Assembly: GCA_963702895.1 (NCBI GenBank)
Contig: OY969767.1
Coordinates: 1,216,001 to 1,280,000, forward strand
Source of the DNA: an uncultured Elusimicrobia bacterium
Lineage (GTDB): Bacteria; Elusimicrobiota; Elusimicrobia; 2-01-FULL-59-12
DNA length: 64,000 bases
Reading direction: 5' to 3'
Position 1 is the first letter of the stretch; each line of letters begins with the position of its first letter. Under the pieces are notes generated by a model, which saw only the letters and a program-made list of their open reading frames with translations, did no database searches and was not told the origin of the DNA. Both the position numbers and the translations under genes were made by a program. Of this stretch, positions 24,503 through 35,367 are shown piece after piece.

Positions 24503-25671
24503 CGGGTACCTCCATGAGTTGGGAGTGACACAGCGTCTGTGATGCATCGAAGAACGTGCTCGGCCATGGCGTGTGTCATGGTCGGAAAAATAGGGAGAGA
24601 CAGAAGTCGTGAAAAGGTGGCTTCACTCTGCGGGCAATCGCCTGGTCGCCAACCCATACGATGATAATAGGAATGCAGGTGGATCGGTCTGTAGTGTACA
24701 TGGACGCCAATCCCTTTGGATCGCAACTGAGAAAACACTTCATCCCGCTCGAGACCCAGTTGTTCGGTCAATAGGCGAATAATGTAGAGGTGCCAGGCAT
24801 GTTTATCCCCAGGACGCGCGTGGGGTGGGCGCTGGATGGCTTTGATCTTTCCAAGGCCCTCATCGTAGCTCTTCGCGATCGTTTCACGGCAGTCCAGAAA
24901 GCGGTTCAACTTGCAAAGTTGTGAGATACCCAGCGCGGATTGAAGATCAGAGAGGCGATAGTTATATCCAAGCTCGGTCATGTCATAGCGCCACGATTGT
25001 CTGGCATCTCGATCTCGAACATCGATATCAATGCCGTGGTGGCGGAATTGGCGCAAACGACGGGCCAGATCGGCGTGAGGTGTCGTGACCGCTCCCCCCT
25101 CAGCGGTGGTAATGGACTTGACCGGATGAAAACTGAAGACGGTCATATCGGAAATGGAACCGATCATTTTGCCTTGGTGGATGGCACCAAAGGCATGCGC
25201 TGCATCCTCAATCACCAGAAGTCCTTGTTCTTGAGCAAAACGATGAACGGCGTCCAGATCGACAGGTTCTCCAGCAAAATGCACAGGAACGATCGCCTTG
25301 GTCCGAGTGCTGACCTTTCTTCGCGCATCTTCAAGGTCAAGGTTAAAGCCGTCACGAACAGAATCGACAAAGACAGGTTTAGCCCCAACATAGAGTGCCG
25401 CGTTGGCGGTCGCCAGAAAAGACATGGTTGGCACCAGGATTTCATCCCCTTGCCCAATTCCTGCAACCGCATAAGCCGCGTGAAGTGCAGCCGTACCGGA
25501 CGAGAACGTGACGGCATGCGCTACAGAAAGTCTTTGTTCGATGACCAATTCGAATTCTCGGACTTTAGGGCCTGTGGTGAGATAAGCAGAGCGCAGCACG
25601 TCGACGACTGCTTGCACGTCATCTTCTTCAATCGTCTGGCGCCCGTAAGGGATGAAATCAGGGGGATTCAT
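24499..25671 (-). CDS. pseC: UDP-4-amino-4,6-dideoxy-N-acetyl-beta-L-altrosamine transaminase
   Basis: IPYGRQTI..DD, LTTGPKV, IEDAAHA, FSFHPVKSITTAEGG, LGYNYRLSD, VHYRPIH. Confidence 0.92.
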   Translation of the reverse strand: MNPPDFIPYGRQTIEEDDVQAVVDVLRSAYLTTGPKVREFELVIEQRLSVAHAVTFSSGTAALHAAYAVAGIGQGDEILVPTMSFLATANAALYVGAKPVFVDSVRDGFNLDLEDARRKVSTRTKAIVPVHFAGEPVDLDAVHRFAQEQGLLVIEDAAHAFGAIHQGKMIGSISDMTVFSFHPVKSITTAEGGAVTTPHADLARRLRQFRHHGIDIDVRDRDARQSWRYDMTELGYNYRLSDLQSALGISQLCKLNRFLDCRETIAKSYDEGLGKIKAIQRPPHARPGDKHAWHLYIIRLLTEQLGLERDEVFSQLRSKGIGVHVHYRPIHLHSYYHRMGWRPGDCPQSEATFSRLLSLPIFPTMTHAMAEHVLRCITDAVSLPTHGGTR

Positions 25672-26255
25672 CGTATGTCTCGCGTGGTCGCTCGAGTTCC
25701 TTGCACCTTCAACCTCTCCGTCAGTGTGCTCATAATATTGATCGTATTTCTGGAATCGCTTAAATTGGGCTTCTGGTTTGTCGAAGCGTCTATGACGAGC
25801 GTCTTATCGTCTTGCATGGCAGGCGGTTGTAACGAAGAATCAACGATGCAAGCAGTGCCCGAACAAAGCTCTTGTAAGATCGTTCGTACGAGATCCGCAA
25901 GATCCCCTTGGCCAACCACAATGATTCGACGAATGCCGGGATGGAATTCTTCTTGGAGAAGACTCCGGATCTGGGCTCGGATGAGGCCAAAGCTCTCGAT
26001 GGTCTTGAGCGTGTAGTGATAGGTCTTCTGAGCCTTTTGGGCTATGCTGCGAGGCGTGACGAGGTATTCGACTTTCTTACGGTTGAGCTGCTTGATGCGC
26101 AGAAACCCTTTCGTCGCAAGACGTCTTAAGAGAAGATTGGTCATCCCCAGAGATAATCCGACATGATGGGACAGTTCCCTCTGATTGGCGCGAAAGCCAT
26201 CAGCGAGAACATTGATAATCTCGAATTCTTTTTCAGTGAGTATCGTTTTGTTCAA
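25668..26255 (-). CDS. EPS-associated MarR-type winged-helix transcriptional regulator
   Basis: NQRELSHHVGLSLGMTNLLLRRLATKG....YLVTP..IAQKA; heads the pse operon; TTG start. Confidence 0.85.
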   Translation of the reverse strand: MNKTILTEKEFEIINVLADGFRANQRELSHHVGLSLGMTNLLLRRLATKGFLRIKQLNRKKVEYLVTPRSIAQKAQKTYHYTLKTIESFGLIRAQIRSLLQEEFHPGIRRIIVVGQGDLADLVRTILQELCSGTACIVDSSLQPPAMQDDKTLVIDASTNQKPNLSDSRNTINIMSTLTERLKVQGTRATTRDIR

Positions 26256-31628: not shown

Positions 31629-32657
31629 TTAGGGTTGCCGAAGGGGTGCCGTCATCTTGCGGGTGCCGTCCAGCTCGGTTTGCACGCGTTGGAGGTCCGC
31701 GTCAACCATGAGTCGAACAAGTTCCTTGAACTTCACACGAGGCGTCCACTTGAGCAGGTTCCTCGCTTTGGTTGCGTCACCGATGAGGAGATCCACTTCG
31801 GTCGGGCGGAAGTAGTGAGGATCGATCCGGACATAAGTCTTCCAATCCAACCCGACGTACGAAAAGGCTTCCTGGCAGAACTCTTCTACAGTATGCGTCT
31901 CACCGGTGGCAATGACGTAATCATCCGGCCGGTCCTGTTGGAGCATGAGCCACATGGCCTCGACATACTCCGGTGCGTAACCCCAGTCACGCTGAGCTTT
32001 CAGATTGCCAAGATAAAGATCTTTGTCGAGCCCGGCTTTGATGCGGGCAACGGCTCTTGTAATCTTACGCGAAACAAACGTCTCTCCACGGCGTGGAGAT
32101 TCATGGTTAAAAAGGATGCCGTTGCATGCAAAAAGCTTATACGCTTCTCGGTAGTTGACCGTCAGCCAATACGCATAGAGTTTGGCGCATCCGTAGGGGC
32201 TTCGGGGGTAGAAGGGGGTGCGTTCCGTCTGCGGCGTTTCCTGCACTTTTCCAAACATCTCACTTGAGGACGCCTGGTAGAATTTCGTTTGAACACCGCT
32301 GTCTCGAATGGCATCCAGGAGCCGCAGGGTGCCGAGTCCGGTGACATCGCCCGTGTATTCCGGAATGTCAAAACTGACACGGACATGGCTTTGGGCGCCC
32401 AAATGATAGATTTCGTCGGGTTTAATTTGCTTCAGCAGCTGGTTTAACGCGCTGCCATCGGTCAGGTCACTGTAATGGAGAAGAAGTTTTGGATGAGGGG
32501 CGTGGGGGTCCTCGTAGATATTGACTAAGCGACCCGTATTAAAGGAACTCGAGCGACGAATGATGCCGTGTACCTCATAACCCTTGCTGAGCAAAAGCTC
32601 AGCAAGATAAGAGCCGTCTTGGCCTGTAATGCCGGTGATCAGCGCGCGTTTGCTCAT
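31629..32657 (-). CDS. gmd: GDP-mannose 4,6-dehydratase
   Basis: [63 protein letters not shown]. Confidence 0.97.
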
Positions 32658-32678
32658 AAGCAATTTAGGGTGTGCGAC

Positions 32679-32687
32679 ATTTTAGCA
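32679..32687 (-). promoter_or_regulatory. Extended -10 element upstream of gmd
   Basis: TGCTAAAAT (TGn-TAnnnT) ending 21 nt before the gmd ATG; no clear -35. Confidence 0.5.
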
Positions 32688-32726
32688 CAAGCTCCGTCGT
32701 CTCTCCTTGAAATCCGGAAGGCGCGG

Positions 32727-33220
32727 AGCAGGAAATCATTAGGGGGGTCCTTTCTATCCCATGGAGCAGGGGCCTGCTCGCTCCGGCGAAATTTCCCCCT
32801 CCATAGCCCAGATCAAGCCGGGCTACAGAGGGTCAGCGTTATGGCGAGGGCAGCCTGCGGAACTCGGGACTTCCCTAGATTTGTGCAAAGGATGCCCTCA
32901 CACAGTCCTCGGCTGGTCACGCCCTCGCCAAAACGCTTGAAATTTCGAGTCGCTCGCTAGACCCCTGCTCCATGGAAAGAAGTTCTACTCATACAATTAC
33001 GCGAACACTTCTTGCCGCGGGGGAGTGAGGCAGCGAACGACTCGCGGACGGCGGCGGGGCGACGAGAGCGTTTTGCCGAGGATGGATGAGCCTCGCCCTC
33101 TAGTCTACAGGAAGGAGGCGAGTTCCGCAGGCAGCTCGAGACGCACCGCCGGGTTGTCCGGGAGCGCCGGAGTGAGATGCCTCACTCCCCCGCGGAAAGG
33201 ACCCACAAAAGTTTCCTGCT
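32727..33220. repeat. Large nested-palindrome element (MITE/REP-like or structured RNA)
   Basis: Outer inverted pairs AGCAGGAAA/TTTCCTGCT and GGGTCCTTTC/GAAAGGACCC enclose domain A (14-bp IR, 32759-32772/32962-32975), a small hairpin (32977-33013) and domain C (18-bp perfect IR, 33015-33032/33178-33195). Confidence 0.8.
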
Positions 33221-33309
33221 ACTCTTAAGACGCCACCGCCAGGCGCATCGCTCTATGCTTCTGCAAGCAGGAAGCCAGAATTAGAAGCCTCGTGCCACCC
33301 CGCACGACG

Positions 33310-33447
33310 TGAATAGGTGATGAATAGGTCATGAATAGGTCACCTTGGTGGGTTTATCGTCTGAAAGAAGGCACACCTATTCATCGTGAATAGGTCGGAC
33401 ATACATGAATAGGTGATGAATAGGTCGTGAATAGGTCATGAATAGGT
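33310..33447 (+). repeat. Array of nine TGAATAGGT boxes, mostly at 11-bp spacing
   Basis: Direct copies start at 33310, 33321, 33332, 33387, 33406, 33417, 33428 and 33439; one inverted copy at 33375-33383. Confidence 0.95.
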
Positions 33448-33457
33448 GAGGTGCGGG

Positions 33458-34156
33458 TTATGCCAGGTCCTTGGGTGAAGGGAGTTTAGCGATCTCATAG
33501 CGGCGCTCGCGCGTATTGGAGGAAGGGCTTTGGCGCGCGTTGCCAGTTTTCACAAGATCCTCCAGGCTCCGCCAGGCGGTCGGTTGGGAGATCCCTAAAC
33601 GGGCGGCAACCTCTTCACTCGTCAGCGGCCCCTGCTCATTGAGCAGCCGGATCAGGCGCACGCGTCGGTCACTGGCGGCCTGGTCGAGCGGCGGCGAGGC
33701 TGCTCCAGGAGTTTTTCGCGAGGCTTGGCGTAGGCTCGCGCTCACCCCCGTCGCGGCAAAGATGCCCAGCACGCCGAGCGTGATGGTCTTCAATTCCTGC
33801 GGAAGCGACCATCGTGTCGAAAGGTTCGCACACGCGGCGAGCGCCAAGTAGAGCGCAAACCAGAGTCCGATGAAAAGTTCGCCACGCCGCAGGCGCATGA
33901 TCGATTCGTCGGCCCCAAGCCACTTGGCGCCTTCCCGTTGTGCCGCGTAGCCGCCAAGAAGCGCTAAATACACATCCCCCCAGGGAACGCGCGAGGCATA
34001 AGTCCCGCCTTTAAAAAACTCATACAGTTGAAAGGCAAAGATGACGGCTGTATATCCCAACGTAATAGGGTAGAGCGCTCGGTCCATGGCATGCAAGAAG
34101 GTTCGGGACTGCACTTGCGGGGTGGTTCCGGACGGTTGTGACGTATCAGTGTTCAT
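33458..34156 (-). CDS. Membrane protein (about 4 TM helices) with a C-terminal winged helix-turn-helix domain
   Basis: Hydrophobic segments in residues ~27-140, a Pro/Ala linker, then RLIRLLNEQGPLTSEEVAARLGISQPTAWRSLEDLVKTG...RERRYEI. AAGGAAGG upstream. Confidence 0.8.
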   Translation of the reverse strand: MNTDTSQPSGTTPQVQSRTFLHAMDRALYPITLGYTAVIFAFQLYEFFKGGTYASRVPWGDVYLALLGGYAAQREGAKWLGADESIMRLRRGELFIGLWFALYLALAACANLSTRWSLPQELKTITLGVLGIFAATGVSASLRQASRKTPGAASPPLDQAASDRRVRLIRLLNEQGPLTSEEVAARLGISQPTAWRSLEDLVKTGNARQSPSSNTRERRYEIAKLPSPKDLA

Positions 34157-34245
34157 GACAGGAGCCCCTTCCTTGGAGAGGTAACGACGGGTTGATGCGC
34201 TGTAATTAAACCAAAGAAAAGGAACATCACTGAGCGCGAAGTGGC

Positions 34246-35367
34246 TTAATAAAAGGCTTTGATCTGATCTGAGACGAAGTCCACATCATCCGTTGACATG
34301 AAAGGGTACAACGGGAGACTTAGAGTTTGTCGTGCCAGCTTTTCACTTACCGGGAAATCATTCACGTGATGACCGAGATGACTCAGCGCTGGGAGCAAGG
34401 GTAGCGTGATAGGATAATGAAGGCCTACCGAAATCTTCTTCTGTTCCAGAAACGTCTTGAGTTCATCGCGACGCTCGGATTGCACGGTATACAAATGATA
34501 AACGTGCTCCCGATCAGGAGATTCGTGAGGCAAAATGAGCGGCAGACCGGCCAGGGCCTTGGTGTAATGTTTGGCCAGATTCTGGCGTCGACGATTCCAT
34601 TCATCAAGGTGCTTGAGTTTTAAGCGCAAGACCGCGGCCTGGATCTCATCTAAGCGTGAGTTGTAGGCGACTTCATCGTGGTGATACTTGATCTTGGCTC
34701 CATGGTTGCGAAGGTTTCGGACACGCTCCGCGAGCTCATCAGAAGAAGAGATGACAGCGCCAGCATCGCCGCAGGCACCCAAGTTCTTGGTTGGGTAGAA
34801 ACTAAGACAGGCGATCGAACCCCACGAGCCAATCTTTTTATTTCGATAAGTGCTGCCGATGGCTTGTGCCATATCTTCAATCAGTGGAATGTTATGTTCT
34901 TGGGCAATCTCTAATAGCGACTGCAGGTCAGCTGGCAAGCCATAAAGATGCACAGCGATGATGGCCTTCGTTTGCTTTGTGATCTTCTGCTTGATGAGGG
35001 CTGGATTAATCGCGTACGTTTTAGGGTCTATATCAACGAAGACAGGTTTTGCTCCCAAGAGGACAATGGGTTCAACGGTCGCAAAGAAGGACATCGCTGG
35101 GACAATGACCTCATCCCCACCCGCGATATTCAGCGCCCGAAGGGCTAGGTGGATGGCATCTGTGCCGCTGTTGACACCGATGGCGTGACGAGCGCCAAGA
35201 TAAGCGCTCAGCTCATGTTCAAAGGCGCTGAGTTCCTTCCCAAGGACGTAGGACCCCGAGCTGAGAATCCTGTCGAGGACGGGCGTTAACTCTGATTTGA
35301 TCGTGTCATACTCACGGCCCAGATCGGTGATGGGGACGCGCCTCGGTATGTCTGGAGGTTTGTTCAT
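34246..35367 (-). CDS. DegT/DnrJ/EryC1/StrS aminotransferase
   Basis: [50 protein letters not shown]. Confidence 0.93.

Follow-up and report, generated by a model that had tools for sequence, protein, structure and literature searches.

Plasmid partition sites such as P1 parS (with ParB and IHF), R1 parC (with ParR) and tubC (with TubR) consist of two arms of phased boxes with a spacer between them, and the specificity differs between related protein-site pairs; P1 parS includes a host bending site. ToxR, TcpP and CadC consist of an N-terminal OmpR-type domain, a single transmembrane segment and a sensor in the periplasm; they act on promoters. Transmembrane transcription regulators need their target DNA to be brought close to the membrane (PMC10269533). 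Two papers describe Streptomyces TraB as an FtsK-like motor that binds 8-bp clt repeats as well as clt-like chromosomal copies (PMC4447253, PMC12857230).

Below we compare these systems with a locus in the genome (G000, a single contig of 2.72 Mb) of an uncultured Elusimicrobia bacterium. "The window" denotes the whole stretch of 64,000 nucleotides that was analysed. Its relevant features are:

31629..32663, minus strand: gene for GDP-mannose 4,6-dehydratase (gmd), downstream flank
32727..33220, no strand: MITE-like dispersed repeat of 494 bp with 9-bp inverted ends, between array and gmd, not part of the proposed cassette
33310..33340, plus strand: distal block of three TGAATAGGT boxes with an 11-bp period
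33341..33374, no strand: 34-bp spacer holding TTTATCGTCTGAAA (33353-33366)
33375..33395, no strand: inverted pair of boxes, 3 bp apart
33406..33447, plus strand: gene-proximal block of four TGAATAGGT boxes with an 11-bp period
33458..34156, minus strand: open reading frame of a 232-aa protein (P0001; predicted four-helix membrane domain, linker and winged helix)
33491..33688, minus strand: winged helix-turn-helix (wHTH) domain, residues 157-222
33569..33589, minus strand: predicted start of the recognition helix, SQPTAWR, residues 190-196
33713..34111, minus strand: predicted membrane domain, residues 16-148
34246..35367, minus strand: gene for a DegT-family aminotransferase, upstream flank

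The array comprises nine exact TGAATAGGT boxes: 33310, 33321 and 33332 (plus strand), the inverted pair at 33375 (minus) and 33387 (plus), and 33406, 33417, 33428 and 33439 (plus). Ten bases (33448-33457) separate the stop codon of the gene from the first box. These positions bear out the original prediction of nine boxes in blocks of four and three around a palindrome, and a count confirms that the 64-kb window holds no further exact copy. Matches with one mismatch number 16 in the window (against 9.07 +/- 2.97 expected), a value reached in 0 of 100 shuffles. The bracket formed by CCCGCAC (33299-33305) and GTGCGGG (33451-33457), which had also been pointed out, is present here but is not kept in a second array of the same genome. 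A search of positions 32500-34400 against Rfam gave no match at E values up to 1.

The arms are separated by 33-34 bp in the window array, in the second array and in the loci L002 and L031. A TTTATCGTCTGAAA-like spacer motif recurs in arrays of distant homologues that use other boxes. Starting from hand-picked seeds, the motif was higher on the array side in 17 of 27 non-seed loci (Wilcoxon p 0.049), and its conservation appears weak to moderate. The genome contains two genes of the HU/IHF family; spacer motifs of this type misfit the IHF consensus. By analogy with P1 parS, the spacer may be a host bending site.

The AlphaFold2 model of P0001 (pLDDT 82.5) consists of N-terminal helices at residues 16-48, 59-79, 90-112 and 120-148 and the wHTH, and has no sensor-sized loop. 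The early description of about four transmembrane helices, a linker and a C-terminal wHTH is thus borne out; only three of the four N-terminal helices are clearly hydrophobic (Kyte-Doolittle peak >1.0), helix 2 being more polar. HTH_IclR matches residues 163-210 (E 1.4e-7), and Pfam gives no match to an FtsK/SpoIIIE ATPase domain in the protein. For the membrane domain there is no Pfam family and no PHROG family. Foldseek against the PDB returned generic bundle matches only (best E 0.76), the best VIA-align hit is a soluble bundle (Z 10.3, rmsd 2.8, 125 aligned; the tool's bundle level is ~13), and the Atlas search found only unnamed or HTH clusters. P0001 has 26 homologues with 46-70% identity (the closest named one, from an Elusimicrobia MAG, at 69%). 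Conserved positions of the membrane domain include Y63, L67, Y70, E75, W79, G92, W99 and P119. The SQPTAWR stretch is hypervariable across the family, with the exception of the nearly invariant R196.

Likeness to TraB/clt lies in a predicted membrane-bound protein whose C-terminal domain would read short direct repeats specific to each element, and such member-specific repeats do occur beside the family genes. TraB, however, is an FtsK-like hexameric translocase of ~770 aa found on conjugative plasmids, whereas P0001 measures 232 aa, has no ATPase, is chromosomal and has no transfer or spread genes alongside. With ToxR, TcpP and CadC it shares a helix domain for DNA binding that is predicted to be held at the membrane, and it falls within the broad definition of a transmembrane regulator (a DNA-binding domain and membrane helices predicted in one chain). 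Unlike in ToxR and CadC, the wHTH is C-terminal and follows four helices with short loops, the N-terminal OmpR-type domain is missing, and most arrays of the family start at the stop codon of their own gene, in many cases opposite a convergent gene. Partition centromeres are resembled in the helically phased boxes, the two arms, the spacer and the pair-specific box sequences; unlike parABS, ParMRC or TubZRC, the locus has no NTPase alongside (its flanks are DegT and gmd), the binder is predicted to be membrane-bound, and several orthogonal copies occur per chromosome, far from the origin. The system works like TraB/clt deprived of its motor or like a transmembrane regulator deprived of its sensor, yet it belongs neither to TraB/clt, nor to the partition systems, nor to the ToxR type.

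A central question is whether array and gene belong together. The genome is rich in short-repeat clusters (116, many of them intergenic and palindromic arrays built from a small number of words that recur), so that control regions are needed for judging any array beside a gene. When 400 control stop regions were used to set the threshold (95th percentile), an array was found beside 54 of 72 family genes, drawn from Elusimicrobiota and Kiritimatiellia, against 16 of the 400 controls, where the family genes had two sides to pass on; for the downstream side alone the number is 50 of 72. The remaining 18 family genes were below the threshold, and at members lacking the wHTH no array was found (0/4). 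Homologues are therefore flanked by arrays of their own with other boxes, as the original prediction had proposed to check. In a first set, 34 of 36 regions held a significant 7-mer cluster, although the side was chosen by eye and the rows include partial genes and close relatives; five of its arrays, all in one branch, lie upstream of the gene. The blind set (31 intact genes, left after removal of three membrane-only loci and three that were broken or cut) had a downstream cluster in 22/31 and an upstream one in 3/30. Over 63 arrays, 189 of 354 spacings measure 10-12 bp and echoes appear at 20-21; in 49 of 58, the distance from the stop codon to the first box is at most 25 bp. A search for the exact TGAATAGGT pattern retrieves only the genome itself (1 of 401 genomes of the phylum) and would be misleading if used alone, because homologues use other boxes. 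Overall, these observations support that the array belongs to the gene.

Exact TGAATAGGT boxes occur 21 times genome-wide, nine of them in the window array and nine in the second array:

C1:431,818-431,965 (L001:9819-9966): second array, same plan, nine boxes, 818 kb from the window array

This array is flanked by a DUF2492 gene and, ~150 bp beyond its end, by a lipoprotein-like gene, and no family gene was found near it. Comparison of the two arrays reveals identity at 81/81 box bases, at 20/48 other inner bases outside the 9-bp spacer motif and at 21/74 flank columns. Given that box bases were kept while other bases diverged, selection on the boxes is indicated. This favours a binding site that is used in trans over a VNTR that slips; the unstable repeat unrelated to the gene that had been named as a refuting outcome is thereby contradicted.

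Three more intact paralogues, at 1,111, 1,394 and 1,601 kb, were found by a profile search of the genome, which also revealed a remnant at 1,108 kb that consists of the wHTH only. Behind each of these four lies a separate array whose box differs and whose period is longer. The box of the 1,394-kb paralogue is also present in two gene-less arrays at 2,037-2,038 kb. Around these (L037:2269-6522, ~2,035-2,039 kb), tandem YhcG (DUF1016) copies lie beside tmRNA, and two of them are cut short by the arrays. Further longer-period arrays without a family gene are seen at C1 506, 705, 1,856, 1,428 and 2,698 kb, the one at 506 kb after a transposase-like ORF and the one at 705 kb after a YhcG-like ORF. 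Gene-less arrays are also found in G401, where they may represent trans sites or remnants. The 494-bp MITE-like repeat beside the window array has strong internal hairpins and seven other near-full copies (73-84%) plus partial ones; copies are intergenic wherever checked, have no Rfam match, and no transposase was identified.

If the wHTH reads the array, box and recognition helix might be expected to change together, as the original prediction had suggested. Aligned boxes mostly start with TG (the alignment was seeded on the box of the window). In G064, the membrane domains of the paralogues L016 and L018 are nearly the same (end branches 0.025 and 0.021), while their wHTHs share 44% identity and their boxes differ. 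L016 combines SQPT, as in P0001, with a TGAATA box, yet lies in another clade, and L033 belongs to the P0001 clade and has an SRTT helix with the box TGAAACA, common to L005. A domain swap behind these convergences was rejected, since the wHTHs of both L016 and L033 stay nearest to their own clades. When helix position 6 is tryptophan, box position 4 is A in 14/14 cases (against 8/49); the rule was derived from the first set and held true for the five W genes, all of one lineage, of the second set. Similarly, Q at position 2 goes with TGAATA (4/4 against 0/59; two clades) and R at position 3 with TGGC (5/8 against 1/55). These rules run in the same direction in separate clades and were never opposed by independent pairs, but with only 2-3 informative pairs per rule (p 0.25-0.5) they are not significant after phylogeny. 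Unbiased scans are mixed: out of 196 windows, those of the recognition helix rank 4, 8, 9 and 20 for Elusimicrobiota and 157-178 for Kiritimatiellia, they are outside the top 12 of 197 in a cross-clade pair scan, and mutual information ranks the helix columns 84-159. The expected co-variation is suggestive only. We judge cognate binding of helix to box to be likely. At L005 and L033 the helix starts with SRS/SRT, as in ParB, and their shared box matches a half-site of the parS consensus; this likeness to ParB/parS is possibly a convergent recognition code.

The family is patchily distributed. Profile matches were obtained in 16 of 401 genomes of the phylum Elusimicrobiota and in 18 of 301 genomes in the class of a Kiritimatiellia genome, and on this ground it is not core chromosome machinery. 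A representative library holds 285 clusters at E 1e-10, and classification of 145 proteins gave 93 with both domains, 39 with just the membrane domain (one of these is named as Patescibacteria) and 13 with wHTH matches alone. Gene numbers per genome reach eight in G064, seven matches in G401 and four intact genes in the genome studied here. The locus search used the alignments A1 and A6 (A3 was too divergent). No relatives were found in viral contigs, nor in plasmids with the one query used. A tandemly doubled membrane domain, seen in L072:7938-9362, P0141 and P0174, hints that the domain may form pairs. In L054 the membrane domain stands behind an N-terminal HTH-like segment, with inverted repeats upstream. 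No description of the protein family was found in the literature covered (search listings of mostly non-subscription papers), and the family is real, conserved and apparently undescribed.

Genes next to the family are unrelated between loci: glnS, mutS, galK, lpxB, tlyA, pfk, integron integrases, Fic and toxin-antitoxin genes are found, and also restriction-type genes. The ORF next downstream is convergent at 12 of 30 loci, with glnS, galK and mutS as examples, and an array located there cannot be the operator of that next gene. In L083 and L091 the family gene lies immediately 3' of an integron-type integrase. The DegT-gmd slot is filled differently in other genomes: a glycosyltransferase-like ORF lies between the two genes in G258 and G336, and follows DegT directly in G366 and past a short insertion in G064, while G353 differs. 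Consequently, gene, array and MITE-like repeat here occupy a position in an operon that works without them. A dedicated regulator of the glycan operon, as originally proposed, does not agree with neighbours that vary by locus or with the convergent ORFs. The glycan cluster also contains a MarR-like winged-helix gene (window 25668-26255), a more ordinary candidate for its regulator.

GC skew places the origin near its minimum at base 660 and the terminus near its maximum at 1,390,472, so that the locus, at 1,250 kb, is 140 kb from the terminus. The four intact paralogues are no more than 280 kb away from the terminus (a post hoc observation in one genome); accessory DNA tends to gather there. 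The only FtsK gene over the cut-off is at 1,340 kb, and parB with a parS-like site is at 126-127 kb. ParB-family genes over the cut-off number five (C1 127, 642, 850, 887 and 2,485 kb), and dnaA is at 2,610 kb, ~115 kb from the skew minimum. Neither a recurring ATPase (50 neighbours scanned at E 1e-40, and further neighbour ORFs inspected) nor recurring transfer genes were found among the neighbours. No KOPS- or Ter-like polarity of the boxes by replichore was seen, and the motifs used revealed no dif-like site.

Gene and array are best read as a mobile, motor-less cassette of a protein plus its site, which likely tethers DNA to the membrane. That the predicted membrane protein docks on its own array and so anchors the locus to the inner membrane has, in our estimate, a probability of about 0.5. 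Any DNA binding by a membrane-embedded protein would tether, and the readings differ in whether tethering is the purpose or a by-product of another role. It would be a by-product for a transmembrane one-component regulator whose binding to the array controls local transcription, be it as a roadblock or terminator aid at the 3' end, by autorepression where the array is upstream, or by control of a downstream gene, for example gmd or, at the second array, the lipoprotein gene. Such regulators are widespread (PMC10269533), the wHTH resembles those of MarR, ArsR and IclR regulators, the five upstream arrays lie where an operator would be, and lipoprotein-like ORFs follow in L005, L053 and L055, as behind the second array. 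Since no target gene is conserved among the neighbours, many of the downstream genes are convergent, and the glycosyltransferase in the DegT-gmd slot of G258 and G336 implies an operon that works without the family gene, this possibility seems rather unlikely to us, even if it deserves to be taken seriously.

The patchy, multi-copy occurrence with diversifying specificity, the toxin-antitoxin, Fic, integron integrase and restriction-type neighbours and the conserved polar residues in helix 2 might instead suggest that DNA serves as the antidote in an addiction or defence unit. The protein would stay sequestered on the array until phage attack or cassette loss degraded or removed the array, and would then form a harmful membrane oligomer. 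PADLOC, however, has no match for the membrane domain and only weak matches to the wHTH region in one of five proteins, wHTH-less members exist without array or partner (three in the same gene context), and many neighbours are housekeeping genes, which makes this reading unlikely. More doubtful still is a role in DNA transfer or export as an adaptor without a motor of its own, the motor (for example FtsK) being provided in trans. It would account for the TraB/clt layout (membrane part, C-terminal DNA-recognition domain, short direct repeats and chromosomal copies; PMC4447253 and PMC12857230) and for paralogues that share the terminus region with ftsK, but P0001 has no ATPase domain, and recurring transfer genes, viral or plasmid relatives (plasmids with one query) and boxes polarised by replichore were not found. 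Least credible are the centromere of a partition system, which the 11-bp phasing in two arms recalls, and a neutral repeat unrelated to the gene, as might be supposed in a genome so rich in short arrays. The former, already raised in the original prediction, conflicts with the position near the terminus, a separate parABS and the lack of a recurring ATPase neighbour, and the latter with the family-wide linkage of gene and array and the selective retention of box bases; together these observations largely refute both, and we consider them very improbable.

According to the anchoring reading, the protein would insert into the membrane near its own gene, and several copies would load along one face of the DNA, with one wHTH per box. 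The 33-34-bp spacer would be bent, possibly by a host protein of the HU/IHF type, so that both arms could reach the membrane. Paralogous pairs would be kept orthogonal by rapid change in helix and box, and gene-less arrays with the same box would be extra anchor points served in trans.

Sequence-specific attachment of bacterial DNA to the membrane is known from few proteins. It might tentatively be argued, though we would not count on it, that the family forms a new class of programmable chromosome-to-membrane anchors (motor-less, sensor-less and mobile) in which orthogonal helix-box pairs and gene-less satellite arrays stake chosen loci to the envelope in phyla that have been little studied, and whose membrane domain stands alone in Patescibacteria. 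The family provides a first handle on this membrane domain and comprises dozens of natural protein-site pairs with predicted boxes, each as compact as a 232-aa protein and a 140-bp site in the case described here. Such pairs offer a natural winged-helix recognition code and candidate orthogonal tools for pinning loci at the membrane.
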